64,000 nt of DNA, taken from Bacillota bacterium (lineage in GTDB: Bacteria; Bacillota_I; Bacilli_A; RF39; UBA660). The notes under the pieces are model-generated. The model was not told the DNA's origin, searched no databases, and worked only from the letters and a program-made list of their open reading frames with translations. Of the stretch, positions 27,175 to 44,097 are shown in pieces. Every line of letters starts with the position of its first letter. Position 1 is the first letter of the stretch. The translations under genes were made by a program, and so were the position numbers. The stretch spans positions 2,679-66,678 of the forward strand of contig SVAS01000003.1 of assembly GCA_015059285.1 (NCBI GenBank), read 5' to 3'.

Positions 27175-27810
27175 CTAAATCGTTCTTCCTATCTTTTTAT
27201 ATACTTCATCTTTTCCTAATTTTGTAACATTGGAAAACATTACAAAATCATCCCCTACTACTAAATCTAATTCTTCTAATATAAGATTACGTTGTTTTTG
27301 TTGACTTGTTATTCCTACTTTATCAGTTTTAGTAGCAATAATTGTAACTGGTAATTCATAATGCTTTAAAAAATTATACATCATGATATCATCATTACTC
27401 GGTTTATGTCTAAAGTCAATTAACATAAAAACTTGTTTTAAATTTTTACGATTAACTAAATAATCCTCCATCATAAGACCAAATTTACGTTGTTTCTTTT
27501 TACTTAAATTAGCATACCCATATCCAGGCGCATCTACTAAATAAAATGAATCATTAACTAAATAAAAGTTAATTGTTTGAGTTTTACCTGGGTTTGATGA
27601 TGTTCTAGCATAATTTTTACGATTAATTAAAGTATTAATAAAACTACTTTTCCCTACATTAGATCTTCCAACCATTAAAAATTCTGGCTTTTCATCAGTT
27701 GGATATTGACTACGTCTAACAGCTGAAATTTTTAATTCAACAGAACTAATACGCATAAAATCACTGTCCTTTAATGCCTCAATTATATCAAAAGAGTAGT
27801 CCATTGTCAA
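27175..27810 (-). CDS. engB: Ribosome biogenesis GTP-binding protein YsxC/EngB
   Basis: GRSNVGKSSFINTLINRKNYARTSSNPGKTQTINFY and DAPGYGYA motifs. The real start may be the internal Met (MRISSVELKISAV, about 27756). Confidence 0.9.
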   Translation of the reverse strand: MTMDYSFDIIEALKDSDFMRISSVELKISAVRRSQYPTDEKPEFLMVGRSNVGKSSFINTLINRKNYARTSSNPGKTQTINFYLVNDSFYLVDAPGYGYANLSKKKQRKFGLMMEDYLVNRKNLKQVFMLIDFRHKPSNDDIMMYNFLKHYELPVTIIATKTDKVGITSQQKQRNLILEELDLVVGDDFVMFSNVTKLGKDEVYKKIGRTI

Positions 27811-27813
27811 AAA

Positions 27814-30511: not shown

Positions 30512-30592
30512 ACAATCACCATCTATAAATTATACTTAATTAATTATAATTTATATTATTATACCATATTTTAATTATATTTTTTAATACAT

Positions 30593-30616
30593 AATAAAAA
30601 GATGGTTAAACCATCT
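30593..30616 (-). terminator. Terminator after the GT4 gene (copy 1 of an identical 24-nt element)
   Basis: aataaaaagatggttaaaccatct. Stem gatggtt/aaccatc, with the minus strand followed by TTTTTATT. Confidence 0.7.
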
Positions 30617-30620
30617 ATAT

Positions 30621-31796
30621 TTATTTATTTTTTTCTTCTATTGATTTTAAATATTCATCACATGTGATATTTGCAATTTGTTCCCAACTAATTCCAAGTG
30701 TTTTTTGAGCATTTATAGAAACTTTTTTTAATAAGTCTTTATTATTAATTATTTCTTTTATTCTATTTTTATATTTCACTTCATCTAATTCTGAAAGAAA
30801 ACCATTTTTACTATCTTCAATTGTTTTACCAACCATACTATCTTTAATAAATAATCCTGGAGTTTTATTGACAGCTGCTTCAATGCGTACCAAACTAGAT
30901 GTATCCATTAAAGACGGAAATAATAATAAATCAGCTCTTGCATAAATAGATGATAACACCAATCTATCTTCAATTCTACCAGTTAAAATAATATCCTTTT
31001 CCATATGGTATTGTTTTATTTTAGTTTTTAATCTATCTTCATCTGGCCCACTACCTACATATAACATTTTAAATTTAATATTATCTTCTTTTAACAGTTT
31101 TAATGCATCTAATATAAAAAATATATTTTTATAATCTATTATTCTACCCACATATAATAAAACTATATCTTTATTTTCTAATTTATAGATCTTATTAGTT
31201 GCCTCTAAATTATGTTTTACATCTTCTAAGGGACGTAAATCTGTTCCATTATGTATTACTACTGGTTCATACTTGTAACCATATTTTTTTATATCATCTG
31301 TAAGTGGTTCATTAACTACTATACATTTGTCACACTTATTAAAAACATTTATTATAAATTTCATTACTTTATTAACAAGCCATTTTTGATTAGTAATTCT
31401 TTTAATATCAAATTCAAATCTAGTATGAACGGTTCCAATACAAGGTATATTTAAATCATGCGCTAATTTAATACCTAATTTACCCATTGTAAAAGGTGAA
31501 TGAATATGAATAACATCAAACCTTTCATTTAAAAGTTCTTTATATATTTTAGATTTTTTTCTAGGCATCAAACCTAATCTATGTTCTGTATAAGGAATTT
31601 TTATACTATCTATTCTTATAATTTTATATTCTTTTTTATAATCTTCTTTATATGTTTTTGTGTAAGGGACTACAACTGTTACATCATGATATCTTGCTAA
31701 CGCGCGAGCTAAACTATCTATTACAACAACAACCCCATCTATAGCAGGATAAAAACTATCCATAAATATACCTATCTTTAATCTTTTTTTCTTCAT
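30621..31796 (-). CDS. GT-B family 4 glycosyltransferase, probably a diacylglycerol glycosyltransferase (glycolipid synthase)
   Basis: N-terminus IGIFMDSFYPAIDGVVVVI is typical of MGlcDAG-synthase-like GT4 enzymes. The C-terminal region is EX7E-like (RIEAAVNKTPGL). Confidence 0.7.
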   Translation of the reverse strand: MKKKRLKIGIFMDSFYPAIDGVVVVIDSLARALARYHDVTVVVPYTKTYKEDYKKEYKIIRIDSIKIPYTEHRLGLMPRKKSKIYKELLNERFDVIHIHSPFTMGKLGIKLAHDLNIPCIGTVHTRFEFDIKRITNQKWLVNKVMKFIINVFNKCDKCIVVNEPLTDDIKKYGYKYEPVVIHNGTDLRPLEDVKHNLEATNKIYKLENKDIVLLYVGRIIDYKNIFFILDALKLLKEDNIKFKMLYVGSGPDEDRLKTKIKQYHMEKDIILTGRIEDRLVLSSIYARADLLLFPSLMDTSSLVRIEAAVNKTPGLFIKDSMVGKTIEDSKNGFLSELDEVKYKNRIKEIINNKDLLKKVSINAQKTLGISWEQIANITCDEYLKSIEEKNK

Positions 31797-31894
31797 ATGA
31801 TCACCTACTTTATATGTTATTTTTACGAAATCAATAATATTATAACATACGATGTAACCAAATACTACTATAACAAAATTTTAAAATATTATTA

Positions 31895-31918
31895 AATAAA
31901 AAGATGGTTAAACCATCT
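31895..31918 (-). terminator. Terminator after the aph-like gene (copy 2 of the identical 24-nt element)
   Basis: The same 24 nt as 30593-30616. It overlaps the aph stop codon and ends the long operon. Confidence 0.7.
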
Positions 31919-32703
31919 TATAAATATAATTGCATCATTAATAAATAATATTCTATTTTATGATAATCTGGAATTATTCCTAACTCTTCATAAAATTTTT
32001 CAACATATTCTTTACCAAAGTTTCTAACAATTGATTTTTGACAAATAGCAAGGTCAAACCATTTATCAGCAATACCACATTCACCTACATCAATAAATCC
32101 TGAAAAATTATCATTTAAACAAAATATATTAGGTAAACTAGTGTCTCCATGTGAAAAAACTAGTTCTTCTTCAAATCTATTATCATCTAAATATTTAATA
32201 ATTTCTTCTAATGAATTAAATTTGTCTTTTACAGCTTCTGGTAACTCGTTATAATTAATTAAACCTTCTTTAACATTAGTTTTTACTAAATTAAGTTTAT
32301 AATCTAAAGCTACATTCATAGGACAATTAGAAATATCTACACTAGTAATTTTTTTAAATGCTTGGGCTATTATTTTAATACCTAAATTTGGATTTTCTAA
32401 CATATTTTTAGAACAAACCATTTCACCTAAAATAGCTTCTGTAATTAAAAATTCAGTACTATTATCTACATCATAAAGAACTACTTTAGGAACTTCAAGT
32501 TTTCCTTCAAGCCATTTTAAAGCATTATATTCTTTTGTAAGTAAGCCTTCACTTGCCATTTTAATAAAAAATATTTCATTGTTTTTTTTTATTTCAAAAA
32601 CTTGAGAATCAGAACATCCAATTCCTATTTCTTTTAATTCAGCGTTTTTTAAAAAGTTCTCTACTTTACTACTTAATTTATAATTAAATTTCATGACTAT
32701 CAT
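31918..32703 (-). CDS. Aminoglycoside 3'-phosphotransferase family kinase (APH(3')-III-like)
   Basis: Collinear matches to my recollection of APH(3')-IIIa: WLEGKLEVPKV, SVDISNCP, EEELVFSHGD..NIF, SGFIDVGECGIADKWFDLA, LGIIPDYHKIEYY. Confidence 0.85.
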   Translation of the reverse strand: MIVMKFNYKLSSKVENFLKNAELKEIGIGCSDSQVFEIKKNNEIFFIKMASEGLLTKEYNALKWLEGKLEVPKVVLYDVDNSTEFLITEAILGEMVCSKNMLENPNLGIKIIAQAFKKITSVDISNCPMNVALDYKLNLVKTNVKEGLINYNELPEAVKDKFNSLEEIIKYLDDNRFEEELVFSHGDTSLPNIFCLNDNFSGFIDVGECGIADKWFDLAICQKSIVRNFGKEYVEKFYEELGIIPDYHKIEYYLLMMQLYL

Positions 32704-32704
32704 C

Positions 32705-34357
32705 CTATCTTTTTCTATCTGAAGGAGTATTAGTTAATCTTTTTTGTTTACTTTCTTTAAAGTAATCATAATTTCCTAAATATTGAACAATTTGTTCTTC
32801 TTCAATATTAACTACTCTTTGAGCAAGTTTATTAATAAAATATCTATCATGAGATATAAAGAATAATGTACCTTTATATTCATTTAAAGCTTCTTCTAAT
32901 ATTTCTTTTGTATCAATATCTATATGGTTAGTAGGTTCATCTAGTATTAATAGATTAGCCTTCTTTTGAATTAATTCAAATAATTTTAATCTTACTTTTT
33001 CTCCACCTGATAATGTACCAACTCTTTTAAATACATTTTCACCATAGAATAAGAATTTGGCTAGAGTAGCTCTAAGACGAGTTTCATCACCATCAAATAC
33101 TTTTCTAGCTGTATCTAATATAGTAGCTTTATCATCTTCAAATTTTATTTCTTGAGGAATATAACCGATACTTACATTACTTCCTACTTTAATTGTTCCT
33201 TGACTTATATTATCTCCATTTAATATAGCTTTAATTAAAGTTGACTTACCTGTTCCATTTTTACCCATCATACATACTTTTTCGCCATATTTAAGGCTCA
33301 TTGAAGCTCCATCAAATAAAACTCTATCGCCTAATATAATACCTAAATCATCGATAACTAAAACATCGTTCCCAGATCTTCCTTTTATTTCAAAATCAAG
33401 AGGAATTTGTTTTTTACTATCTGGTCTATCCAAAATTTCCATTTTTTCTAGTTTTCTTTCAATACAAGCAGCTCTTCTAAAAAATCTAGGGTTATCTCCA
33501 CGTTCTCCCCATTCTTTTAATTTTTTAACAGCAGCTTTCATTGCTTCAATTTGTTTTTGTTGTGTTTTATATTCTTCAAATTCCGCTAAAGCTCTTCTTT
33601 CACTTTCTTCTAAATAATAAGAATAGTTTCCATGATAAACTTCAGCTTTCCCTTTATCCATTAAAACTGTTTTAGTGGCTACTTTATCTAAAAAATATCT
33701 ATCATGTGAACTAATAATAATTGTTCCTTTATAATTTGATAAAAATTGTTCAAACCATTCTAATGTGTCTATATCTAAGTGATTAGTGGGTTCATCTAAA
33801 AGTAATATATCAGGATTACTAATAATAAGTGAAGCTAAATTAACAATTGTTTTTTCTCCACCTGATAATGTATTAAAATATCTATCTAACATATTATCAT
33901 TTATTTTAAATCCTCTACAAATTTTACTTACTTGTTCATCTATTTCATATCCGCCCATCATAGCAAATTTTTCTTGTAATTGTCCATAACTTTTAAGAAT
34001 AGAATCTAATTTAGATGGATCAATATTCGCCATCTTTTGTTCATATTCTCTTAATTTTTTTTCTATTTCAAAAATTTCTTTAAAACTACTAAGTAATATA
34101 TCTCTTACTGTACAATCATCAGTTACTTTAGGAGGCATTTGTGAAAGCATTCCAATAGTTGCGCCTTTACGAGTTGCAACCATTCCTTTACTTACTGTTT
34201 CTTTACCTATAATTACATTAAATAAAGTAGTCTTACCACAACCATTAGGACCTATTAAAGCTATTCTTTCCCCTGTATTTGCTTCCAAATCAAATTCATC
34301 TAAAACATTTTTAAAACCAAAACTTTTTACAGCTTTATTTACACTAATATCTATCAT
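32705..34357 (-). CDS. ABC-F family ATPase (no membrane domain), candidate ribosome-protection protein
   Basis: Two NBDs (GPNGCGKTT, GKNGTGKST; LSGGEK twice; LLLDEPTNHLD/LILDEPTNHID) joined by a charged helical linker. The ATG at 34357 is preceded by GAGGTGAG. Confidence 0.88.
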   Translation of the reverse strand: MIDISVNKAVKSFGFKNVLDEFDLEANTGERIALIGPNGCGKTTLFNVIIGKETVSKGMVATRKGATIGMLSQMPPKVTDDCTVRDILLSSFKEIFEIEKKLREYEQKMANIDPSKLDSILKSYGQLQEKFAMMGGYEIDEQVSKICRGFKINDNMLDRYFNTLSGGEKTIVNLASLIISNPDILLLDEPTNHLDIDTLEWFEQFLSNYKGTIIISSHDRYFLDKVATKTVLMDKGKAEVYHGNYSYYLEESERRALAEFEEYKTQQKQIEAMKAAVKKLKEWGERGDNPRFFRRAACIERKLEKMEILDRPDSKKQIPLDFEIKGRSGNDVLVIDDLGIILGDRVLFDGASMSLKYGEKVCMMGKNGTGKSTLIKAILNGDNISQGTIKVGSNVSIGYIPQEIKFEDDKATILDTARKVFDGDETRLRATLAKFLFYGENVFKRVGTLSGGEKVRLKLFELIQKKANLLILDEPTNHIDIDTKEILEEALNEYKGTLFFISHDRYFINKLAQRVVNIEEEQIVQYLGNYDYFKESKQKRLTNTPSDRKR

Positions 34358-34399
34358 TTTCTCACCTCGCATCAAATGAAATTCAAATTAAACAAGCAT

Positions 34400-34408
34400 A
34401 TTATAACA
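34400..34408 (-). promoter_or_regulatory. Possible extended -10 promoter (TGTTATAAT) upstream of the ABC-F/APH pair
   Basis: The minus-strand TGnTATAAT element lies in the 54-nt gap between the DegT-like gene and the ABC-F start. No good -35 is present. Confidence 0.3.
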
Positions 34409-34411
34409 CAA

Positions 34412-35452
34412 TTATTTATCTTTTTCTATGGTGTCAAATATTTTTTGTAAATTCTTTATTTGCTTATTTATTTTTACATTTCTAGTTCTAAGTAATATAA
34501 CCTGTTTATCACTGTTTTTTAAGTTATATATTTTACTATTTTTTAAACTTGGTAATCCATAATTAGGAACTTTATGTTTTTGTTGATATTCTAATTTATA
34601 TAATTTAGAAAGACTTATAAATTTATTATAACTATCGCGATCCAAAAGAATAGGGAAACGATGCCATACATTAGAATATATATTATCTTTAGTTGCAATC
34701 ATTTCGATATTTCTATTTTTTAATTCTATAAAGTACTTAAATGCATTTTTTCTTTGTTCTTTAACTACTTTATTACCTATTTTTATAAGTTTTTTCAAAT
34801 TAATTTTATGACAAAGTGGATATAAATAAGAATATATTAAATTATTTTGTAATCTACTTTCATTATCACAAAAATCAAAGTATTTATAATATTCTTTATT
34901 ATTAAAAAACATACCCCCACCAATTCCATAACTTAGTGGTTTAGTGTGTCCAAAAGAAGTTACGACTATATCAGCATCTTGGCATTTTAAAATATTCCAC
35001 GATTGTGCTATATCTTCAATTATTTTAATACCCATTTTTTTATACTTTTTTTTATCTAAGTTATGTAGTATACCGTACTGATGAACTAACAAAATGCAGT
35101 CTATTTTTTGCTTTTTTATTACTTCAGAAATTTCTTCATCTGTTAATATTAAGTTATCTTTAGGTACAACAATAATAGGATTATAATTTAACTTTTTAAT
35201 TGTACTCATAATAGAATAACATACTTCTGAAGAAACCAATATATTGGCTTTTTCTTCTAAATTTAAACATTTAAAAGCAAGTTCAATTGCAAGTGTTCCA
35301 GAATATGTTATTACTCCATACTTCTTATTAAAATATTTAGCTAAAGCATTACCTAATTTTTGATTACTTTTTCTCACTTTTTCCACTCCTTCATTTTTTA
35401 CAATGAAATACATGTTTATGTTCAAAACCTGGTGCTCCATACCCATCATCAA
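34412..35452 (-). CDS. DegT/DnrJ/EryC1/StrS-like PLP enzyme (short form)
   Basis: YSGTLAIELAF, IIEDIAQSW and VVTSFGHTKPL (candidate PLP lysine) in family order. The N-terminus is shortened and the start is uncertain (35452 or the Met at 35413). It overlaps the upstream methyltransferase gene. Confidence 0.65.
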   Translation of the reverse strand: MMMGMEHQVLNINMYFIVKNEGVEKVRKSNQKLGNALAKYFNKKYGVITYSGTLAIELAFKCLNLEEKANILVSSEVCYSIMSTIKKLNYNPIIVVPKDNLILTDEEISEVIKKQKIDCILLVHQYGILHNLDKKKYKKMGIKIIEDIAQSWNILKCQDADIVVTSFGHTKPLSYGIGGGMFFNNKEYYKYFDFCDNESRLQNNLIYSYLYPLCHKINLKKLIKIGNKVVKEQRKNAFKYFIELKNRNIEMIATKDNIYSNVWHRFPILLDRDSYNKFISLSKLYKLEYQQKHKVPNYGLPSLKNSKIYNLKNSDKQVILLRTRNVKINKQIKNLQKIFDTIEKDK

Positions 35453-36110
35453 TTTTTAATATTGATAATAAATTATTTAAAGTATTTAAAACAAAATACT
35501 CATCATAATATAAATATTTTTCTTTTTCTATCACTATCTTTTGACTATTTACTAAGTGATATTTAATTATAAATTCTATATAATTACTTTTTCTTATAGA
35601 AGTATAATAAACTTCTACTTGTTCTTTTAATTCACTATGTTCTTTCGTAAATAGTAATTGTTCTTTGATTTCTGGTTTTTTATTAAAACTTTCGGATAAA
35701 TCAAATAAAACAATTGTTTTTTCGTTACATATCTTATAGATTTGTTTAATCATTTCTATGAATTTATTTTTATCACCAGAAAACTGTAAAGTACTATAAG
35801 GAACTATAATTAAATCAAAATCTTTTTTTATAGGATTATAATTTATAAAATCACAACATACTACATTAATATTACTAGTTTTCTTTTTTAAAAGATTTAA
35901 TCTTTCTAAATCCATATCTAACGCTGTAACTTGAGCATACTTGCTTAAAGGAATAGCAACTCTTCCGGTACCTGCTCCTATAATAAGTACATTCTTTGCC
36001 TTATAAAATTTCATTTGTTTTATATAATAATTAATGTCATCATTTTGACCTCTTAAAGTACATTCATTATAAAAATCATACATAAGAGCTAATAATTCAT
36101 TATCATTCAT
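35391..36110 (-). CDS. Class I SAM-dependent methyltransferase
   Basis: Motif I VLIIGAGTGRVAIPL and post-I LDMD. The ATG at 36110 preceded by AGGGGT is preferred over the start at 36137. Confidence 0.8.
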   Translation of the reverse strand: MNDNELLALMYDFYNECTLRGQNDDINYYIKQMKFYKAKNVLIIGAGTGRVAIPLSKYAQVTALDMDLERLNLLKKKTSNINVVCCDFINYNPIKKDFDLIIVPYSTLQFSGDKNKFIEMIKQIYKICNEKTIVLFDLSESFNKKPEIKEQLLFTKEHSELKEQVEVYYTSIRKSNYIEFIIKYHLVNSQKIVIEKEKYLYYDEYFVLNTLNNLLSILKIDDGYGAPGFEHKHVFHCKK

Positions 36111-36117
36111 AATACCC

Positions 36118-37080
36118 CTACTTTTCTCCATAATCATATAAATTTAAATAAGGTTTATTTTCTTTATTCCAATGCATATTATAAAATCTACTTTGATAAG
36201 TTCCGAAAGAAATATTAAAGTCTTCTATACTTTCAAATACAGAACCTTCAAAATCTACATATTTAACAATATCATTTTCAATAAAAAACTTAAATATTTG
36301 ATGATATAAAAACGCTATAGCAACATCATCTTGTTTTTCTTCATAATATGAATAAAGTATATAGGCTGTTTTTTTGTCCCATGCCATATGAACTCCGCCT
36401 ACGACTTTACCATTTTCTAAAGCTACAAAACACATTCCACGATTATGTTTAATAGTTTTTCTAATATAATCTTTAACATCTAATGCAGTAGATTCATAAT
36501 TATATTTTGCTTCCCATTTCATAGCTTTATTAGTATCAAAATATTTAATATCTTTATCAACTACAAACTCATAATTTCTCTTTATTGCTCTTTTTATATC
36601 TTTTTTTCTATCGCTACCATAATTTTTAAAAATTTCTTCTATTCCTTTAGATAAATCTAATTTATAAGTATATCTAACTTCTGGAGTAAAATTATTTCTA
36701 ATAAATGGCATAATATCAATAATTTCATTATCTATAGAAAAATCCGCACTCTCAAAATTTTCTTTAATAAATTTACACAATACTTTTTCTACATTTCTAA
36801 TATATCTTATTTTATTACGATTTTCTTTAGGCAAATTAAATATAACAGGTCCACCATAAGGAATATACATAGTACTTTGAAAAATAATTTTAGAATTTCC
36901 AGAATTAAAATAAGGCATAAATCCTTGTAATTCATTTTTATCATTTAATATTTTTAAAATTTTATTACTATTTTTAAACTTCAAAAACCAAGAATAAGCA
37001 AAACAAGTTCCATTAAAACTATTATCTATAAGCTCATCTATATTTTTAAGTTCTTCTATATTTCCAAATTCTATATGCAT
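36118..37080 (-). CDS. FemAB/Acetyltransf_6-like GNAT-fold acyl or aminoacyl transferase
   Basis: 320 aa. The pattern ...RKKDIKRAIKRNYEFV..., CFVALENGKVVGGVHMAWD and VDFEGS...FNISFG resembles FemX/CelD-like two-lobe GNAT proteins. Confidence 0.55.
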   Translation of the reverse strand: MHIEFGNIEELKNIDELIDNSFNGTCFAYSWFLKFKNSNKILKILNDKNELQGFMPYFNSGNSKIIFQSTMYIPYGGPVIFNLPKENRNKIRYIRNVEKVLCKFIKENFESADFSIDNEIIDIMPFIRNNFTPEVRYTYKLDLSKGIEEIFKNYGSDRKKDIKRAIKRNYEFVVDKDIKYFDTNKAMKWEAKYNYESTALDVKDYIRKTIKHNRGMCFVALENGKVVGGVHMAWDKKTAYILYSYYEEKQDDVAIAFLYHQIFKFFIENDIVKYVDFEGSVFESIEDFNISFGTYQSRFYNMHWNKENKPYLNLYDYGEK

Positions 37081-37083
37081 AAA

Positions 37084-37920
37084 TTACTCCTTTGAAATTA
37101 TTATATGACATCTTTTTATTTCATTATTTTTTAAATCATCATATGTCTTATTTCTTCTTCCCCAAAAATCTAAACTCAAAATACTAGAAACACTATATAA
37201 ATATTCAATATGATTAAATAAGCAAAAAAATCCAGCACATTCTTTTCTACCTTCATACGAAGAACCCCATTTTACATTAAACCAAGTGTCTTTATTTTTA
37301 AACATTAAAGTATACCCTAAAGGAATACCTTTTTTATAAATAACTTGTAAGCTTGTTTCTAAAGGATTATTTAATAACATTGGAAGGTACTGTAAATCTT
37401 CCCTATCCAAACTTTTCATATCTGAATTTTCTTCCCTTTTCCAAGAGTTATAATCAATTACTAATACATCTTTCCATAATCTTAAAACATCTTCATTTTT
37501 AGAATTTTTTATTTGAAATTTTTCTTTATTTTTTATATATTTCTTATAATTCTTTTTAATTTGATTAGAACTTAACGTATCAATATAAACATTTAAAGGT
37601 GTATTTAAATCTAATAAAGGAGAATCCCAACAATCAAGCTCTTCAAATTTAAAGTTATTTTTTCTTGCCCAAATTTTTAATCTTTCAATACTTTCTTGAT
37701 TATCAAAGTAACTAAATCTTACTTTTTTATTATTTTCTATTTCCTTTTTAATTTGTTCTAAGACTTTTTCACTTATATTAAAGTTAAAGAAGTTTTGGCA
37801 CTTTAAAATACTCTTATCTTCATAAAAATATAAATTATCATATACTTTTATTTTATCTATATCATATCTTATATATAATGCATTTATCCAATCAGAACTC
37901 ATCGTAAAATTAAAGTTCAT
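37084..37920 (-). CDS. Acetyltransf_6 (CelD/BioF2-like) GNAT-fold transferase
   Basis: 278 aa. The C-terminal YKKGIPLGYTLMF...SLDFWGRRNKTYDDLK resembles the PF13480-type D-x-G-x-G...YK signature. Confidence 0.5.
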   Translation of the reverse strand: MNFNFTMSSDWINALYIRYDIDKIKVYDNLYFYEDKSILKCQNFFNFNISEKVLEQIKKEIENNKKVRFSYFDNQESIERLKIWARKNNFKFEELDCWDSPLLDLNTPLNVYIDTLSSNQIKKNYKKYIKNKEKFQIKNSKNEDVLRLWKDVLVIDYNSWKREENSDMKSLDREDLQYLPMLLNNPLETSLQVIYKKGIPLGYTLMFKNKDTWFNVKWGSSYEGRKECAGFFCLFNHIEYLYSVSSILSLDFWGRRNKTYDDLKNNEIKRCHIIISKE

Positions 37921-39127
37921 CTTTGTACTCCTTTAAACATTTTATAATATATTTAATATGTTTATTTTTTAAAGAAGCAGATAAGTTGTAAAACGCTACT
38001 CTTTTAAATAAAGAATATGAATAAGATAAATCACTTTCTCGATAATGACTTACATTATAAGGAAATCCACTTGTATGCCATGATTGTTTTTTTATAAATG
38101 TATCAAAATTAGAAATTAAATTACTACAATATAAATTAAAACCAATTCCCTTATTATTCATTTTTTTAATAAAATCTGAACACTCTTTTTCAGATTTAAA
38201 CTCTATAGCAAGGCTTGTAAATATCGGTTTAGAACCTATTACAAATGGTCTAATATTATAAAATTTGGTATCAATATTATTTACAATTTTATAATAAGTA
38301 TCATTTTGTTTCCTAATAATTTTTTCAATTTTATTTAATTGTTCTAAAGCTATAGCACTTTGAATTTCAGTTATTTTAAAGTTTTCTCCAAAAAAAGTTT
38401 TTCCATTTTCCCAAGTTGGATAATTACAACCATTTCGGTATCCTCCATTATCATGGTACATTTTAGCTTTTTCATATACTTGTTTATTGTTGGTTGCTAA
38501 AAATCCACCTTCACCGCAAGTAATTGTTTTCCCAGCTTGAAGACTAAATGCTCCAATGTTTCCCAAAGTCCCTACCTTTTTATTATTGATACTTGCTCCA
38601 AAAGCTTGAGCTGTATCTTCAATAACTACTAAGTTATGTTTTTTAGCAATTTTATTTATTTCTATCATATTACAAGGTTGTCCTTGCATATGAATAGCCA
38701 TAATAGCTTTTGTTTTATCAGTAATCTTTTCTTCTATTTTTTTATAATCTATATTCATAGTATTATCTATATCTACAAATACAGGAATAGCACCACAAGA
38801 TAGCACTTCGCTTGCTGATGCTATAAATGTAAAAGGTGACATTATAACTTCATCCCCACATCCTATATCACTCGCAATACAAGCAAGTTTTAAAGCAGCA
38901 CCACCACTTGTACAAGCAAGTACATATTTAACGCCTAAATATTCGGCCAAATTCTTTTCAAACTTGTCTGTTTTATATTGTAAATTAGGACCATGATATC
39001 TAAATAAACTTTTACTTTTTAAAACTTTTTTTACTGCTTTAATCTCTTCTTTACCGATATAATGAGTACCAATAAAAGGATCATTTGGAATCTTCACAAA
39101 AATCCCCCCTTTACTTATTTTCTTCAT
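37910..39127 (-). CDS. DegT/DnrJ/EryC1/StrS family sugar aminotransferase
   Basis: 405 aa. CTSGGAALKLA, DEVIMSPFTFIASA, VIEDTAQAFGA and FSLQAGKTITCGEGG (PLP lysine). Confidence 0.85.
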   Translation of the reverse strand: MKKISKGGIFVKIPNDPFIGTHYIGKEEIKAVKKVLKSKSLFRYHGPNLQYKTDKFEKNLAEYLGVKYVLACTSGGAALKLACIASDIGCGDEVIMSPFTFIASASEVLSCGAIPVFVDIDNTMNIDYKKIEEKITDKTKAIMAIHMQGQPCNMIEINKIAKKHNLVVIEDTAQAFGASINNKKVGTLGNIGAFSLQAGKTITCGEGGFLATNNKQVYEKAKMYHDNGGYRNGCNYPTWENGKTFFGENFKITEIQSAIALEQLNKIEKIIRKQNDTYYKIVNNIDTKFYNIRPFVIGSKPIFTSLAIEFKSEKECSDFIKKMNNKGIGFNLYCSNLISNFDTFIKKQSWHTSGFPYNVSHYRESDLSYSYSLFKRVAFYNLSASLKNKHIKYIIKCLKEYKDEL

Positions 39128-40232
39128 ATATTATTTTAGCTATTTTAAAAGCTGCATCTTTTTCAAATTCATTAAAATAAGTGTTTCTTTTTTCAAAATA
39201 TTTTTCTTGATTAGAATTTAAATATTTACTAATTATTTTATTAACACTTTCTTTATAATCATAATCTAAATATTGTTTTATATTTTCTAAAACCATATCT
39301 ACTCCAGATTTTTCATCTAAATACATAGGTATTTCTTTATAAAAATTAAAATTATCCCAATTTAATATATCAAAACCAAAATCCATTTTTCTATAGTAGT
39401 TTAATTGTAACATCTGACTATAATTTATAGCAGGCAAATACATAATATTTTTATTTTCATTAATTGTTTCTATAAAATTACCAAGTCCTGATGACATAAT
39501 ACAGTGACTGGATTCTTGCATACATTTTAAATATTCTTCATTTGATAAAGTTTTAATAAATACTTTATCATTTTCTTTATCTAATTTAATATTATTAATT
39601 ACTTTGCTACCACCACAAATAATAATTTTATCAAATTTATTTATTTCGTTTGTAGAAAGAATTTCATTAATAATTTTATTATAAAATTTATTTATTATAG
39701 TTTGATCAAATAGAAATGATGAAGCCCCACCTAAATTAATAATTAATTGATTTTTAGTTTTGCCTTTATAAGAGTTTTTTAAATTTCTAACAGGTCCTAA
39801 AAATATAGGATTATCAATAACATGACCAACTCTATCAAAGTTTTCTTTACATGAGAATGTTTCTGATATAAAGAACTTCTTAACTTTACCTAACTTTTCT
39901 GGTATTTCATCCCACATCCATACTAAGTTATCAACATAATAAACATTCTTTATATAATCTAAACTGAAGATTGCTCCATTAATATTTTCACTTGAAAAAT
40001 AGATATCATATTTTAAAAATACATCTTTATGTTTTTCTAAATCAACCATGTCAAAAGTATCGCACTCATAAAATTCATTAAAATATCCACTCATTTTAGC
40101 TTGTTCTAAAGAAATTCCTGAACCGATAAAATCAACAATTACATCAGGATATTTAATTAATTCTTTTATAACATTAAGACAAGTCGCAATAGGACCATAT
40201 CCAAAACTTTCAGCTGATACTAATATTTTCAT
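39111..40232 (-). CDS. GT-B fold glycosyltransferase (GT1/GT28-like)
   Basis: N-terminus MKILVSAESFGYGPIATCL. The C-terminal HCIMSSGLGNFIETINENKNIMYLPAINYSQ fits the H-x4-G-x-G-x3-E...P...Q nucleotide-sugar motif of GT1/MurG-like enzymes. Confidence 0.55.
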   Translation of the reverse strand: MKILVSAESFGYGPIATCLNVIKELIKYPDVIVDFIGSGISLEQAKMSGYFNEFYECDTFDMVDLEKHKDVFLKYDIYFSSENINGAIFSLDYIKNVYYVDNLVWMWDEIPEKLGKVKKFFISETFSCKENFDRVGHVIDNPIFLGPVRNLKNSYKGKTKNQLIINLGGASSFLFDQTIINKFYNKIINEILSTNEINKFDKIIICGGSKVINNIKLDKENDKVFIKTLSNEEYLKCMQESSHCIMSSGLGNFIETINENKNIMYLPAINYSQMLQLNYYRKMDFGFDILNWDNFNFYKEIPMYLDEKSGVDMVLENIKQYLDYDYKESVNKIISKYLNSNQEKYFEKRNTYFNEFEKDAAFKIAKIIYEENK

Positions 40233-40234
40233 TT

Positions 40235-41254
40235 TTATAACTCCTTTATTTTAAAATAACATTTATTAAATTGACAATTAGCTTCATCACACTTTTTCTT
40301 GCAATCAAGCTCACTATTTAATAATTTTGTTTGTAATTCACTTCTTTTTGAACCATTCCAAATTTCTGTAAATGTTTCATTATGTAATTCACCAATCTTA
40401 TATATAGTTCTATCTCTATGGATACTACAATCACAAGGATATACAAATCCTGTTGGAGCATCTATAAAAACGCAATATGATGGATAAACACATTTTAAAT
40501 CTAAATTAATACTTCTATCTCCATTTGAATTAATTTCTTTTTTAAAAAAATTAATATCACTACATAAAAATTCTATACCTAATGAAGCAGATAAACTTAA
40601 ATAATAATCTAAATTATTATTATAATTATTCATTTGTTCTTCTGTAAAAAATAAATCATCACAATCTTTAATAATTATTGGATTAATATAGTCAAAATCA
40701 AATCTTTCTTTTAACCTAATAAAACTTTCAAAATCATCTATATTTTTTTTATTTAATACGTGGTTAATTGCTACTTTAGTATTTGGCATATATTTTTTTA
40801 TTAAATTAATATTACGAGTAACAATATCCCATAAACCAACTACTCTTCTCAGTTCATCATGTATTTCTGCATTAAAACTATCAATTGAAAAAAACACTGC
40901 ATTTATATCATAAGTAGCTAATTTTTTTATTTTTTCTTCATCTAAATTTAAACCATTTGAAATAACATTTATATGAATACCTTTTTTAGTAGCATATTCA
41001 ATATATTTAAATATATCATCATTAATAAAAGGCTCTCCACCACCTGTAAAATGAATATATTTAGTCCCAAGTAAGCTTAATTCATCTATTAATTTAAATA
41101 CATCTATAGAACAATTTTTTTCTTTATTCTCCCTTACATCACAAAAAACACAATTAGCATTACAAAGATTACTTAAAGATAAATAAGCATAATATGGTTT
41201 GTCATAAAACTTTAGTAAGTCTTGTTTTTTTTCTTTTAGTAATTTCAAATACAT
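40235..41254 (-). CDS. Radical SAM enzyme with C-terminal SPASM/twitch-like Cys-rich domain
   Basis: CNANCVFC (CX3CX2C), the GGGEP SAM-binding motif, and C-terminal cysteines (CVYPSYC...CDC...CKKKCDEANCQFNKC). Confidence 0.88.
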   Translation of the reverse strand: MYLKLLKEKKQDLLKFYDKPYYAYLSLSNLCNANCVFCDVRENKEKNCSIDVFKLIDELSLLGTKYIHFTGGGEPFINDDIFKYIEYATKKGIHINVISNGLNLDEEKIKKLATYDINAVFFSIDSFNAEIHDELRRVVGLWDIVTRNINLIKKYMPNTKVAINHVLNKKNIDDFESFIRLKERFDFDYINPIIIKDCDDLFFTEEQMNNYNNNLDYYLSLSASLGIEFLCSDINFFKKEINSNGDRSINLDLKCVYPSYCVFIDAPTGFVYPCDCSIHRDRTIYKIGELHNETFTEIWNGSKRSELQTKLLNSELDCKKKCDEANCQFNKCYFKIKEL

Positions 41255-41256
41255 AG

Positions 41257-41724
41257 TTACACCTCATTTAAACCATCCAATATTCCACTTATTGTTTGTA
41301 ACATTGAATCATTTAAAAAATCATTACATTTATAATATTTAGTATTAGTTAAAGTATCTAATCCCATAACAACTGGAGAATACATAAAATTATCTTCTAC
41401 TAAAATGTGTAAATCTTTTTTTAAAGCGGATGCCCAACCTAACTCAATATGAACTCCACCACTTATTCCTTTAGATAAATGATTACCAGGTATTACTATA
41501 ATAGCATCACTAGATTTAATTCCTTCATAATCACTTAAAGTACACTCTTGAGGTCCCTTATGATCTACTCCCCAATTTTCTCTTTTTATAGCTAAATAAT
41601 AATCAAAACCCTTATTAGTAATCAAATTAATTAAGTTTTCAAAAAACGGCTGATATTCTTTTTTTACAACATAATTTTCTTCTTCACATAATCCAGTAAA
41701 TGGACAAGATATAAATACTTTCAT
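41257..41724 (-). CDS. Nucleoside 2-deoxyribosyltransferase-like (candidate nucleotide N-glycosidase)
   Basis: 155 aa. MKVFISCPF ..., SDAIIVIP and GGVHIELGWASALKKDLHIL follow the PF05014-type pattern (D...G...E.G.A). Confidence 0.55.
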   Translation of the reverse strand: MKVFISCPFTGLCEEENYVVKKEYQPFFENLINLITNKGFDYYLAIKRENWGVDHKGPQECTLSDYEGIKSSDAIIVIPGNHLSKGISGGVHIELGWASALKKDLHILVEDNFMYSPVVMGLDTLTNTKYYKCNDFLNDSMLQTISGILDGLNEV

Positions 41725-41731
41725 TTTTTTC

Positions 41732-42610
41732 CTACCTTCTAAAATATTTTTTCTTTGTTAATAATTTATCTGTTAATGATGTTTCACTTATGCATAAATT
41801 ATTATTAATTCCGGTTGCAATAAATCTTCCATCAGTATTTACTAAACGGTGAAAATCACTTCCAACAGAAGTTAATAAATCATGTTTTTTAGCAATATCA
41901 TATAACCAAATAGTATCTTTTTTTAAGCAATCTGATTGATATATTTCTATTCCATCTATTCCCATAGAAATAAGTTTGTGAGTAATAACTTCAACTTCTG
42001 CTTTATCTAATTTATAAGCCATAGGATGAGCAAAAACAACATATCCTCCAGCAGAATGTATAGCATCAATTACATGTCTAACAGAAACTTCATAATCTTC
42101 GCCATAACTAAATCTATTAGCTTTATAATAAACTCTTAACTTATCTATTGATTCTTTTGAATAATTACCCTCTTCAAAACATTTAATAATCTCTCTATCA
42201 AACCAACAATAACGGCTAAAATTTAAATAGCCAATTTCCTCTTCTGGTAATACTTTTACCATTTCTTTTACCTTTTTTACTACGCTCATATGAGCATCTA
42301 TTCTTTTATCTTTCATTTCATTTAATAACTCTTCTAATTTATGGTTATTTTCATTAAAACCATAACCTAGAATATGTAGTTTTATTTTCTTATTGTTAAT
42401 TACTATATAAGAAGAAAACTCAACTCCATTTATGCCAACTAAACCCTTTTTAATACTTTTTTTAAATTCATTCAAACCTTCAATTGTATCATGATCAGCA
42501 ATTGATAAAATTTTAGTACTGTTATCATTTGCTAGTTCAATAATTTCTGTCGGAGTAAAATATCCATCTGAATTATTTGAATGAACATGCAAATCAATGT
42601 ATTTACTCAT
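41732..42610 (-). CDS. PHP-domain phosphoesterase
   Basis: YIDLHVHSNNSDGYFTPTEII...SIADHDTIEG, then FAHP and GSDFH metal ligands. The ATG at 42610 is preceded by GAGGTGA. Confidence 0.85.
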   Translation of the reverse strand: MSKYIDLHVHSNNSDGYFTPTEIIELANDNSTKILSIADHDTIEGLNEFKKSIKKGLVGINGVEFSSYIVINNKKIKLHILGYGFNENNHKLEELLNEMKDKRIDAHMSVVKKVKEMVKVLPEEEIGYLNFSRYCWFDREIIKCFEEGNYSKESIDKLRVYYKANRFSYGEDYEVSVRHVIDAIHSAGGYVVFAHPMAYKLDKAEVEVITHKLISMGIDGIEIYQSDCLKKDTIWLYDIAKKHDLLTSVGSDFHRLVNTDGRFIATGINNNLCISETSLTDKLLTKKKYFRR

Positions 42611-42630
42611 AAGTATCACCTCTAATTATA

Positions 42631-42660
42631 ATTATATAGACTTATCTGTAATTTGACCAA
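42631..42660 (-). promoter_or_regulatory. Candidate promoter of the 12-gene operon
   Basis: Minus-strand TTGGTC (42655-42660), an 18-nt spacer, and TATAAT (42631-42636), 20 nt upstream of the PHP start codon. Confidence 0.4.
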
Positions 42661-42683
42661 TACCTAAATCTTATATGTTATAA

Positions 42684-42697
42684 GTTATAATTATAAC
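42684..42697. promoter_or_regulatory. Perfect 14-nt palindrome GTTATAATTATAAC, possible LysR-type operator
   Basis: It lies just upstream of the candidate -35 and downstream of the lysR-family gene. It is AT-rich, so a chance occurrence is possible. Confidence 0.3.
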
Positions 42698-42729
42698 AAA
42701 AAAAGGAAACTTTAATTATTTCCTTTTTT
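42698..42729 (-). terminator. Hairpin around the LysR stop codon
   Basis: 9-bp stem aaaaggaaa/tttcctttt with flanking A and T runs. Confidence 0.5.
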
Positions 42730-43614
42730 AAATATATTTACAAAATCTTTGACAATATCATGATTAAATTTTTTATTGTATGCTACACTAACAGGGATAA
42801 ATACTTTATCAATATCAACATTAACTTCAAATAATTTACCATTTTCAATATCTTCTAAAACAAAATTTTTAATCATCCAGCCAATTCCAATTCCTTTACT
42901 GATTATGCCTTTTGAAACAGAAGATGAATTAGCTTCAATTAAAGGATTTAATACTATTTGTTTTTTCTTAAAATACATATCTATCATTTTTCTATTGGCG
43001 GTATGTGGTCCAGGTAAAATTAATGGATAATTTACTAATTCAGAAGCCTTTACTATCTCTTTTTCTGCAACACTCTTAAATTGCTCACTACATACAAAAC
43101 AACTTTCCAAATTAAGAATATCATATTTAGATAAAGGAGAACCATCTAAATCAGGCATATCAGTATCAATAACAATATCCAGTTCTCTTTTAGTTAGCAT
43201 CTTTAACATTTCTTCAGATTTCTTATTAACAATATTAATTCTTATATTGGGGTATTTTTCATTAAAAATTTTCAAATAATTAACAAAATAAAATGTCCCT
43301 ATATGAGTAGGCACCCCAATATTAATAATATCAAAAGAAGCCTCTTTTGCTTTATCTAACATCTCTTGATTTGCGAGTGCAAGTTCACAAAGTTTTTCAG
43401 AATAATAATAAACTACTTCACCAGCCGGTGTTAACTCAATCCCTTTAGAAGTCCTTTTAAAAAGTTCTAAATTTAATTGTTCTTCTAATTTTTTTATTGC
43501 TTGAGTTACTGCAGGTTGTGAAATATATAACTCATGTGAAGCTTTAGTAAAACTTTTGTATTTTCCTACTATATAAAATGTTTTATATAAATTTAAATCA
43601 ACATTCAAATTCAT
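42712..43614 (-). CDS. LysR family transcriptional regulator
   Basis: N-terminal wHTH (FTKASHELYISQPAVTQAIKKLEEQL) plus a periplasmic-binding-like effector domain. 300 aa. Confidence 0.9.
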   Translation of the reverse strand: MNLNVDLNLYKTFYIVGKYKSFTKASHELYISQPAVTQAIKKLEEQLNLELFKRTSKGIELTPAGEVVYYYSEKLCELALANQEMLDKAKEASFDIINIGVPTHIGTFYFVNYLKIFNEKYPNIRINIVNKKSEEMLKMLTKRELDIVIDTDMPDLDGSPLSKYDILNLESCFVCSEQFKSVAEKEIVKASELVNYPLILPGPHTANRKMIDMYFKKKQIVLNPLIEANSSSVSKGIISKGIGIGWMIKNFVLEDIENGKLFEVNVDIDKVFIPVSVAYNKKFNHDIVKDFVNIFKKGNN

Positions 43615-43756: not shown

Positions 43757-44097
43757 TGGTGGAGCTGAGGAGAATCGAACTCCTGTCCAAAAATATATTC
43801 ATATAAATTTCTACAAGTTTAGTCAGTTAATAAAATTCCTAGATAAACTGATAACTAACAATCTATTTTCTAGTAAGCCTATAAAATTCATTATTACTTC
43901 TAGGCGCCGTAATAATATATCCCATTAAATCGAGCCTCTTAAAAACTCCATGGGAGAAAGTTTATAAGAAGCAGCCTCCATTATATTAAGCGAAAGCTAA
44001 TTGATTTCTGTTTCCAGTTATTTTTTGTTTGCACTTAACGCGTGCCTTCGACTTGCCATCTATACTTCAATATTTCTGTCGAAACCTAAACAGCCCC
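43757..44097 (-). ncRNA. ssrA: tmRNA (ssrA)
   Basis: Minus-strand 5' end GGGGCTGTTTAGGTTTCGAC and 3' end GGAGTTCGATTCTCCTCAGCTCCACCA (T-arm, acceptor, CCA). The internal tag frame is AAAAATAACT|GGA AAC AGA AAT CAA TTA GCT TTC GCT TAA. Confidence 0.93.

Follow-up and report, generated by a model that had tools for sequence, protein, structure and literature searches.

A candidate two-layer immunity module, composed of an ABC-F ATPase and an APH(3')-fold kinase, at the end of a predicted nucleoside-antibiotic operon of gut Bacilli

Introduction

Mobile macrolide resistance can be carried by two-gene units such as msr(E)-mph(E) and msr(A)-mph(C), in which the gene for a ribosome-protecting ABC-F protein is followed by that for an APH-fold drug kinase. 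Among antibiotic producers, the A201A nucleoside-antibiotic cluster of Streptomyces capreolus encodes both Ard1 (an ARE-ABCF protein of subfamily AAF1) and the phosphotransferase Ard2 (PMC10201436, PMC12710036), the latter of which phosphorylates A201A (PMC12710036). Likewise, hygromycin A is phosphorylated by the 2''-O-phosphotransferase Hyg21 (10.1101/2021.11.29.470217), and both Hyg21 and the capuramycin kinase CapP are described as producer kinases that inactivate their own nucleoside-type antibiotic (10.1101/2021.11.29.470217; PMC12710036).

Here, we analysed a stretch of DNA of 64,000 nucleotides (hereafter referred to as the window), in which the genes for an ABC-F ATPase and an APH(3')-fold kinase are the last two of a 12-gene operon (Table 1). 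The host is a tiny-genome gut bacterium, and the operon is predicted to be antibiotic-making.

The window pair resembles Ard1/Ard2 in that an ABC-F protein and a drug kinase would reside within the cluster of a peptidyl-transferase-centre nucleoside antibiotic and combine target protection with O-phosphorylation (PMC10201436, PMC12710036), so that Ard1/Ard2 of A201A provide an analogous precedent for an ABC-F protein plus phosphotransferase in a nucleoside-antibiotic cluster. However, Ard1/Ard2 stem from Actinomycetes and the window pair from small-genome gut Bacilli, and the window ABC-F protein scores only 314.8 (cut-off 800) with the actinomycete producer-type model NF000171, which covers TlrC/CarA/OleB/SrmB (Ard1 not being among the models). 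Also in contrast to Ard1/Ard2, the window genes are adjacent, apparently coupled, equipped with their own predicted promoter, mobile as a module, and fused in relatives. Hyg21 and CapP show no such pairing or fusion with a neighbouring ABC-F protein. With the msr-mph units, the window pair shares order and logic (i.e., the ABC-F gene directly followed by the kinase gene), but its ABC-F protein scores 333 against the Msr cut-off of 680 and has a linker far shorter than the tunnel-reaching linker of Msr, while its kinase is of the APH(3') and not the Mph type and the neighbouring cluster is of the nucleoside type rather than dealing with macrolides.

Table 1. Features of the ABC-F/kinase locus in the window.
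Feature	Position	Strand	Remarks
Kinase gene, APH(3')-fold	31918..32694	-	258 aa from conserved start ATG 32694; longest ORF from 32703
Terminator-like hairpin and T-run	31901..31919	-	End of transcription unit; overlaps kinase stop
Putative translational-coupling junction	32703..32707	-	ABC-F stop TAG overlaps kinase Shine-Dalgarno AGGA (32703-32706); read from sequence
ABC-F ATPase gene	32705..34357	-	550 aa; ATG at 34357, stop TAG at 32705-32707
Ribosome-binding site GAGGTGA of ABC-F gene	34362..34368	-	Read from sequence
Extended -10 element TGTTATAAT	34400..34408	-	Internal promoter candidate of ABC-F/kinase pair; cross-locus conservation
Upstream context	34412..43614	-	LysR regulator and ten biosynthetic-type genes; syntenic in about 20 genomes
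tmRNA gene ssrA	43757..44097	-	Bounds variable block; relatives without cluster compared at ssrA

Results and Discussion

Operon context and gene junctions

The operon is syntenic in about 20 species-level genomes of gut Bacilli, and every complete homologous locus ends with the ABC-F gene and then the kinase gene. With its biosynthetic-type genes arranged as PHP phosphatase, Ndt-like, radical SAM/SPASM, CGA-synthase-like glycosyltransferase, DegT, two Fem-like, methyltransferase and DegT-like, the operon looks like a nucleoside pathway of the blasticidin/gougerotin type.

The DegT-like ORF stops at 34412-34414, i.e., at the 54-nt distance from the ABC-F start codon that the first-pass annotation had given, and the GAGGTG of the ABC-F ribosome-binding site is free of variation across an alignment of four loci. 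As to the kinase, its start had been placed 1 nt past the ABC-F stop, which holds for the first ATG (32703) but not for the likely start: since all aligned homologues are 257-258 aa long and begin with MKFNY or MNFNY, ATG 32694 is most likely the genuine start codon. Because the kinase Shine-Dalgarno sequence overlaps the ABC-F stop codon, translational coupling of both genes is implied. In homologous loci the intergenic gap is typically 1-10 nt, with 47 nt in one case (L109).

The kinase had also been said to precede the only terminator, and a hairpin is indeed located at its stop codon, the one other terminator-like site on the minus strand between 30400 and 44300 (30616..30600) lying after the next gene. 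A strict hairpin with T-run was present in 12 of the 47 homologous loci, so that we do not regard a terminator 3' of the kinase as generally conserved; the hairpin is a local rather than a universal feature.

The pair is preceded by a conserved promoter candidate

A bare promoter scan was uninformative in this AT-rich DNA, with 111 promoter-like sites versus 116 in shuffled sequences. Since the motif as such is therefore no better than chance, only cross-locus conservation was counted as evidence for TGTTATAAT. In 27 of 29 homologous loci, a TGnTATAAT element precedes the start codon of the ABC-F gene by 35-54 nt, including those where the pair stands alone, while chance would place it there in 0.16 of the 29 loci and the surrounding intergenic sequence has diverged. 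This conservation supports the earlier proposal that the extended -10 element could give the pair independent expression. Attenuation by a leader peptide preceding the ABC-F gene was also considered and rejected, as a leader of 35-54 nt is too short for it in the cluster-linked genes.

The kinase resembles APH(3')-IIIa in fold and catalysis but not in its substrate pocket

The likeness of the kinase to APH(3')-IIIa, the enterococcal/staphylococcal kanamycin kinase, was borne out by a full-length alignment (E-value of 2.5e-38, 135 bits) with what proved to be its nearest solved relative (PDB 2BKK, 1J7I and 1L8T) and its nearest named subclass, with which it shares fold, length, and ATP-binding and catalytic residues. 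These core residues, i.e., K44, E60, HGDxxxxN and D208 (elsewhere numbered K45, E55, H182-G-D184...N189 and D202), are intact in the window kinase and kept in 55/55 sequences of the core clade (the His in 51/55). Moreover, the protein passes, marginally, the NCBIfam APH(3') family model NF033068 APH_3p (219.9, cut-off 205). None of the named subclass models (I-VIII and XV) was satisfied, however, the scores against cut-offs being 134.6/530 for IIIa, 147.8/360 for II, 101/400 for I and 90/525 for VI.

In APH(3')-IIIa, aminoglycosides are contacted by Glu157 and Glu160 in the binding loop, by Glu262 and by the C-terminal Phe264 (PMC3691515). Such contacts are replaced in the window kinase (E157L, E160A, E262Q, D193L, E230R and D261M), the C-terminus of which is one residue longer, with a Tyr and an extra Leu (and a shift by one residue) where APH(3')-IIIa ends in F264. 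Across 55 family sequences, E160 is retained in 40 and E262 in 48, and the remaining contact residues in none. In the tree, the kinase family moreover forms a clade of its own (support 100/99), apart from APH(3')-IIIa and the clostridial proteins closer to the latter, and aph(3')-IIIa genes, although the best matches on plasmids, are 35.5-37% identical. On this identity we discarded the possibility of a recent connection with mobile aph(3')-III, and the suggestion of a chromosomal reservoir related to it is not supported in view of the identity of about 36%, the separate clade and the replaced contacts. Since the kinase passes the APH(3') cut-off, gut resistome surveys are liable to count it as an aminoglycoside-resistance gene, whereas its substrate pocket argues otherwise.

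The ABC-F protein has intact ATPase cassettes and a short, conserved linker

The ABC-F protein consists of two Pfam ABC_tran domains joined by an ABC_tran_Xtn linker, lacks a membrane domain, and has intact Walker A, Walker B, signature and H-loop motifs in both cassettes. Its homologues at 65-83% identity are 551-553 aa long; the tip of the linker, EWGERGDNPRFFRRAACIE, does not vary within the main clade, and its conservation of 0.89 equals that of the ATPase cores. With the generic NCBIfam model NF000355 ('ribosomal protection-like ABC-F') it scores 439.8 (cut-off 380), but it falls far below every cut-off of the named ARE subfamily models (Msr, Vga, Lsa, Sal, OptrA, CplR and producer-type). 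Attempts to place it in a known subfamily failed, as the PDB scores for EttA, YbiT, VmlR, PoxtA and Uup were all similar (260-283 bits). The nearest plasmid-borne ABC-F proteins are 41-43% identical and annotated as ribosomal-protection-like.

Measured between the HDRYF motif and the second Walker A, the linker span is 157 aa, compared with 149 in EttA, 151 in YheS and Uup, 152 in YbiT, 160 in PoxtA, 172 in Sal, 176 in VmlR and 179-180 in Vga. Given this short linker and the low scores with the named ARE models, the ABC-F protein by itself cannot be told from a translation factor. The span is close to that of PoxtA, and a short-linker action of the PoxtA/OptrA type could plausibly evict a cytosine nucleoside bound at the P site. 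Nevertheless, the protein scores 316 against a cut-off of 1450 with the OptrA model, its PDB score with PoxtA does not exceed the one with EttA, and the drug class differs.

Distribution, loss and transfer of the pair

An unbiased sample of 401 genomes of the family was analysed. Within this sample, both genes adjoin the cluster in 5/5 evaluable cluster-bearing genomes, the contig of a sixth breaking inside the ABC-F gene. Variant, rearranged clusters in four Clostridia MAGs (L077, L078, L080 and L097) carry the kinase at 39-47% identity, and three of them have an ABC-F protein of a separate lineage (40-41%) in another order and orientation, the L078 locus being truncated on that side. Kinase and ABC-F protein have co-diverged with cluster type.

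In a same-genus relative (G001), the whole block is absent and ssrA is followed by a gene orthologous to 27178-27813. The ABC-F gene is therefore no housekeeping paralog kept in this position by relatives that lack the cluster, which the first-pass annotation had named as an observation against its own reading; both genes are missing there. The ABC-F subfamily as a whole occurs in 50 of the 401 genomes, and roughly 30 of the 401 hold a version at 48-59% identity with neither kinase nor cluster. Orthologues of at least 65% identity are confined to about 8 genomes and always lie beside the kinase (including 3/3 independently sampled cases). Co-occurrence of the ABC-F subfamily with the kinase family has an odds ratio of 10.9 (p = 3.5e-7).

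Both genes also exist away from the cluster. The intact kinase was found alone in 15 species genomes and the pair alone in 4, and the glycosyltransferase was absent genome-wide from all of these but detected in both positive controls. In the kinase tree these genomic contexts are interleaved, so that no fewer than 18 changes are needed, and there are sister copies that barely differ from each other. A comparison of L029 with L032 revealed a clean indel of ~11.8 kb (LysR to ABC-F) between ssrA and the kinase, so that in L029, which is without the cluster, ssrA is directly followed by the kinase. Re-use of the ABC-F promoter by this orphan kinase was not apparent, as only the last 24 nt of its ~170 nt upstream sequence align with the ABC-F promoter region of L032. 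Two other signs of loss or exchange are 3' remnants of the ABC-F gene retained by three orphan kinases and a 2.7-kb pair module that is 97.8% identical between different flanks. In one locus (L111), the pair is situated 20 nt behind an unrelated operon.

Proposed function and its alternatives

We consider it probable that the ABC-F protein and the kinase form a two-layer immunity module, i.e., ribosome protection plus drug phosphorylation, directed at what the operon itself produces. This product is predicted to be a peptidyl-nucleoside of the cytosine type, with the peptidyl-transferase centre as its binding site. By analogy with known ABC-F proteins, the ATP-bound form would bind the ribosomal E site and, by extending the conserved hairpin between its two domains in the direction of the P-site tRNA and the peptidyl-transferase centre, dislodge bound drug. 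The kinase, with an intact ATP site and catalytic loop and a remodelled substrate pocket, would then phosphorylate a hydroxyl of the free drug and block its rebinding. The pair would be expressed from its own, presumably constitutive, extended -10 promoter in addition to operon read-through, with kinase translation coupled to that of the ABC-F gene. A unit that has its own promoter and occurs alone or fused in the absence of the operon follows the pattern expected of an immunity or resistance device. Operon membership, co-inheritance, the conserved promoter and persistence without the cluster support the first-pass assignment of both genes as putative immunity determinants.

Several observations count against this reading, among them the short linker and low ARE model scores of the ABC-F protein, the family genomes that carry a related ABC-F gene with neither kinase nor cluster, and the pair behind an unrelated operon in L111. 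The PHP phosphatase is a constant member of the operon, adjoins the kinase in the variant clusters and is also paired with it in non-producers, and the kinase may therefore take part in a phosphorylation/dephosphorylation scheme beyond simple inactivation; as the sole ABC-F protein of its genome, its partner could also serve a housekeeping role. In one alternative, the ABC-F protein confers immunity while the kinase is mainly a pathway enzyme that phosphorylates an intermediate or the end product, synthesis proceeding on an inactive phospho-form from which PHP, resembling a 3',5'-nucleoside-bisphosphate phosphatase, removes the phosphate last. Such pro-drug logic is familiar from streptomycin biosynthesis. 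PHP falls in the nucleotide 3'-phosphatase/RNase AM branch (125 bits with NF041577 and 128 bits with NF047791, both below cut-off; PDB 2yb1 and 7ug9), and its gene lies right next to that of the kinase in L081-L083 as well as in the variant clusters. We nevertheless regard this alternative as unlikely: the main-clade kinase persists intact in 15 or more species genomes that have neither PHP nor other biosynthetic genes, seems to share a separate promoter with the ABC-F gene, and is fused to ABC-F in other lineages, and PHP has no signal peptide, which would put it in the same compartment as the kinase.

That the pair is a general or otherwise targeted resistance cassette hitch-hiking beside the cluster (e.g., the kinase acting on aminoglycosides and the ABC-F protein on lincosamides, pleuromutilins or phenicols) would accord with the APH(3') family score, with the annotation of the closest plasmid ABC-F proteins, and with the copies of the pair and of the kinase located elsewhere than at the cluster, in one case following an unrelated operon. 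It seems quite improbable in view of the replaced aminoglycoside contacts, of a cluster linkage that includes every evaluable cluster and outlasts deep divergence and rearrangement, and of the hosts, which are small-genome gut anaerobes; anaerobes take up aminoglycosides poorly. Finally, the short linker, the PDB scores close to those of EttA, YbiT and Uup, and the lack of a second ABC-F gene would suit an ordinary translation factor of the lineage, next to a kinase acting on a cellular metabolite and at the end of the operon by accident. This we deem very improbable, as the block is missing from a same-genus relative and most of the family, several family genomes are devoid of any ABC-F protein, and the pair is patchily distributed and exchanged between different flanks.

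Returning to the two-layer immunity module, comparative genomics shows that the unit is separable and that its parts have merged in some lineages: ABC-F and kinase are fused into one ORF of ~790 aa in G176 and G124, and a large protein collection contains 574 cluster representatives of such fusions. It is conceivable, if rather doubtful, that both proteins constitute one coupled 'dislodge-and-inactivate' machine, in which a kinase located next to the ABC-F protein, or tethered to it, phosphorylates the evicted nucleoside ahead of any rebinding. Their repeated retention together and their fusion into a widespread protein in gut Bacilli would thereby be explained, and, if true, the window operon would name the natural drug class of the whole undescribed ABC-F/APH family, fusions included. 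In any case, ABC-F/kinase pairs and fusions, which make up a large family, become tied to a specific biosynthetic cluster, making the protective target of the fusions experimentally approachable, and the window pair itself is a concrete immunity candidate for an undescribed, predicted ribosome-targeting nucleoside antibiotic of uncultured small-genome gut bacteria.

Judging from the same genome comparisons, non-producers retain either the pair or just the kinase, which would protect them from neighbours that make the drug. In the 401-genome sample, 6 kinase-only and 2 pair-only genomes were found versus 4 cluster-bearing genomes of the same kinase clade, and this excess of immunity-only genomes of about 2:1 bears the mark of chemical warfare in the gut.

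The ABC-F and kinase genes as a putative two-layer immunity module

The ABC-F and kinase genes are tied to each other by linkage, modularity, a conserved promoter and gene fusion, and the most economical reading of the pair is a two-layer immunity module with a predicted drug, target site and activities: the ABC-F protein would shield the ribosome from the drug, which the kinase would phosphorylate. The pair shares its order, ABC-F then kinase, with the msr-mph operons found on mobile DNA. Further direct precedents are Ard2, which accompanies the ABC-F protein Ard1 in the A201A nucleoside-antibiotic cluster of Streptomyces capreolus and phosphorylates A201A (PMC12710036), and Hyg21, by which hygromycin A is phosphorylated (10.1101/2021.11.29.470217); the window kinase would, by analogy, act likewise.

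Gene layout and promoter of the pair

All genes across 27.8–43.6 kb lie on the minus strand, at a G+C content of ~26%. The first-pass annotation had the coordinates and spacings of the pair right except for the kinase start: since every kinase homologue is 257–258 aa long and begins with MKFNY or MNFNY, the true start is most likely the ATG at 32694 (whose AGGA overlaps the ABC-F stop) and not 32703. Its statement that the only terminator follows the kinase also held, as a minus-strand scan found none inside the operon besides the terminator-like hairpin there. The same hairpin sequence, AGATGGTTTAACCATCT, occurs at 31901–31919 and again at 30600–30616, after the next gene (GT4).

Features of the operon and of homologous loci (L017 to L115, loci fetched from other genomes)
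Feature	Position	Strand	Basis or remark
TrpH-type PHP phosphatase	41732-42619	-	family match; TrpH/RNase AM/3',5'-nucleoside-bisphosphate-phosphatase branch
Nucleoside-deoxyribosyltransferase-like protein	upstream operon gene		family match
Radical SAM/SPASM enzyme	upstream operon gene		weak BlsE match
Glycosyltransferase	upstream operon gene		weak cytosylglucuronate-synthase match
DegT aminotransferases	upstream operon genes		family match
Two Fem-like proteins	upstream operon genes		family match
Methyltransferase	35391-36137	-	family match
DegT-like ORF end	34412-34414	-	sequence reading
ABC-F ribosome-binding site GAGGTGA	34362-34368	-	sequence reading
ABC-F gene	start ATG 34357, stop 32705-32707	-	sequence reading
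Kinase ORF, longest form	possible start 32703	-	sequence reading
Hairpin and T-run, terminator-like	31919..31901	-	overlaps kinase stop
Extra 293-295-aa gene	L017:6443-7327		example
Extra 293-295-aa gene	L021:6428-7309		example
Extra 293-295-aa gene	L106:8103-8990		example
ABC-F/kinase fusion ORF	L114:6142-8508	-	G176:C6; 788 aa
ABC-F/kinase fusion ORF	L115:722-3094	+	G124:C25; 790 aa

An extended –10 element at 34400–34408 had been proposed to drive the pair independently. Taken alone, this motif (TGTTATAAT) is unremarkable in a promoter scan; what stood is its position, as in 27 of 29 loci, stand-alone pairs included, TGnTATAAT precedes the ABC-F start by 35–54 nt within diverged surrounding sequence (background expectation of 0.16 loci, the formal probability being overstated by the shared descent of the loci). 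An attenuator before the ABC-F gene was rejected because the leader is too short. Given the conserved –10 element and this short leader, the pair looks to be expressed constitutively in addition to operon read-through, as producer immunity would predict.

ABC-F and kinase proteins

The ABC-F protein has two intact ABC cassettes with an ABC_tran_Xtn linker between them, and no membrane domain. It passes the generic NCBI 'ribosomal protection-like ABC-F' model (439.8; cut-off 380), and the profile search reached neither a named model of an antibiotic-resistance (ARE) subfamily nor EttA; against solved structures, EttA, YbiT, VmlR, PoxtA and Uup scored similarly. Its linker span of 157 aa falls between those of housekeeping factors (149–152) and PoxtA (160), well below VmlR, Vga and Sal (172–180). 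The linker tip, EWGERGDNPRFFRRAACIE, is invariant within the protein's own family and matches the ATPase cores in its degree of conservation; the arm and C-terminal tail drift. If, by analogy, this tip reaches towards the P-site tRNA and the peptidyl-transferase centre, the protein could plausibly dislodge a cytosine nucleoside that occupies the P site.

The kinase clears the APH(3') family model by a small margin (219.9; cut-off 205) and failed all APH(3') subclass models. As noted on first pass, it aligns with APH(3')-IIIa, which is its best solved relative (E 2.5e-38; 35.5–37% identity). Among 55 family members, the ATP lysine, Glu salt bridge, HGDxxxxN motif and Mg-binding Asp proved to be conserved, the His of the motif in 51 of them. 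In APH(3')-IIIa, aminoglycosides are held by Glu157, Glu160, Glu262 and the Phe264 C-terminus (PMC3691515); the window kinase has L, A, Q and Y there, followed by an extra Leu, and further replaces D193 by L, E230 by R and D261 by M. With catalytic residues intact and contact residues replaced, it therefore appears to be an active APH(3')-fold kinase with a remodelled substrate pocket. This identity level, the kinase tree and the replaced contact residues lend no support to the suggestion that it represents a chromosomal reservoir related to mobile aph(3')-III.

Distribution and relatedness of the arrangements

Kinase homologues of 51–70% identity are numerous in metagenomes. Their contexts were fetched together with 80 loci from species-representative genomes, and mapping all window proteins onto them yielded six types of arrangement. 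In type (a), about 20 gut 'uncultured Bacilli/Tenericutes/Mollicutes' MAGs carry the whole operon in synteny, with ABC-F and then kinase as its last genes and the ABC-F gene as the best conserved (65–82%). Type (b) is the pair alone, and type (c) the kinase alone (51–65% identity) between clean flanks of 10 kb. Type (d) comprises Clostridia MAGs in which the cluster is rearranged: the six core genes are there, the PHP gene adjoins a 39–47% kinase, and three of the four also have a 40–41% ABC-F gene in different order and orientation. Type (e) consists of PHP and kinase pairs, and in type (f) gut Alphaproteobacteria have just the kinase.

These cluster, pair-only and kinase-only states are, by sequence comparison, real and related. 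The glycosyltransferase was absent from all 19 genomes searched (15 kinase-only, 4 pair-only) and present in both positive controls. Contexts are interleaved in the kinase tree, the 'orphan' state needing at least 18 changes, and near-identical sister copies occur (L032/L029, L057/L049, L033/L035). Between L029 and L032 the DNA is 96% identical from a point 16 nt before the kinase through 9 kb downstream, and identity resumes on the side of the tmRNA gene ssrA, the difference being a clean ~11.8-kb block from LysR to ABC-F. Beside three orphan kinases the ABC-F 3' end is still present. Moreover, the 2.7-kb pair module (85 nt upstream of ABC-F to 150 nt past the kinase) is 97.8% identical between unrelated flanks, and independently sampled ABC-F homologues of ~80% identity were followed by the kinase in 3/3 cases (one full cluster, two pairs).

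An unbiased sample of the window's family (401 genomes) contained 6 with the glycosyltransferase, 24 with the kinase family (13 of the core clade) and 50 with the ABC-F subfamily, the latter two co-occurring in 13 (odds ratio 10.9, p = 3.5e-7). Both genes lay beside the cluster in 5/5 evaluable cluster genomes, the sixth contig ending within ABC-F; core-clade kinase genomes comprised four cluster-bearing, two pair-only, six kinase-only and one of unclear type. A housekeeping ABC-F gene at this position in cluster-less relatives had been named as the observation that would speak against immunity; the same-genus relative G001 lacks the whole block, its ssrA being followed ~880 nt on by the orthologue of window gene 27178–27813. 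On this comparison, block 27814–43614 (about 16 kb) is therefore accessory. It also holds a GT4 glycosyltransferase, a 448-aa PP-loop-like protein and a MurD-like ligase.

In MAGs of gut Alphaproteobacteria, Candidatus Enterousia among them (L084–L091), intact kinase homologues (38–44% identity) branch as one tight clade from within the Bacilli family tree, which suggests that the kinase alone was transferred across phyla within the gut. A third cluster type (L116 = G235:C3:33000–46000, also G442) encodes, in this order, a radical SAM protein (315 aa), DegT (384 aa), a 311-aa protein, an APH-like kinase (347 aa; N-terminal extension, 36% identity), proteins of 699, 148 and 360 aa, and an ABC-F protein 65% identical to the window's.

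Gene fusions and alternative readings

In two family genomes, both lacking the cluster, an ABC-F (51–52% identity) and a C-terminal APH-fold kinase domain (35–36%) form one ORF. One fusion (L114) retains HGDxSLPN; the other (L115) reads LGNMSLDN, with catalytic His and Asp lost, which probably leaves its kinase domain inactive. A search of a large protein collection, limited to long proteins, returned 574 cluster representatives of this architecture, on which the text of the main ABCF survey is silent (PMC6723617). Gene fusion is independent evidence that both activities serve one process.

A pro-drug or two-step scheme involving PHP and kinase is kept alive, because simple inactivation does not explain the constancy of the nucleotide-3'-phosphatase-like PHP in the operon, its place right next to the kinase in the rearranged clusters, or the PHP and kinase pairs in two genomes without Fem-like genes. 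PHP loci outside the window include L015:200–1111 and L083. The immunity reading has against it that this is the sole full ABC-F of the window's genome (1.04 Mb, 95.6% complete), that ABC-F genes 48–59% identical stand alone in about 30 of the 401 family genomes, and that one pair (L111) follows another operon. Most relatives have another ABC-F, about 30–37% identical, elsewhere in the genome. In L111 (3128–12450) and L112, the pair has no –10 element of its own and lies 20 nt behind an unrelated operon (30-aa ORF, PPDK_N/PEP-utilising protein, ThiF-like protein, 539-aa methyltransferase, two unknowns) with bacteriocin-type neighbours (Rce1-like, PedC-like).

Upstream genes and predicted product

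The weak family matches of the upstream genes offer a lead towards a cytosine peptidyl-nucleoside pathway. The methyltransferase may add a third, target-modifying immunity layer. It weakly matches rRNA adenine methylases in its SAM-binding part only (RrnaAD 25.1 bits, cut-off 24; broad Erm model, E 5.7e-9), and this match is probably generic. Many homologous operons carry, between the methyltransferase and DegT-like genes, an extra gene with a faint radical-SAM match; the window operon lacks it, and its DegT-like ORF is instead longer (346 aa vs. 318–322), sharing 62 nt with the methyltransferase gene.
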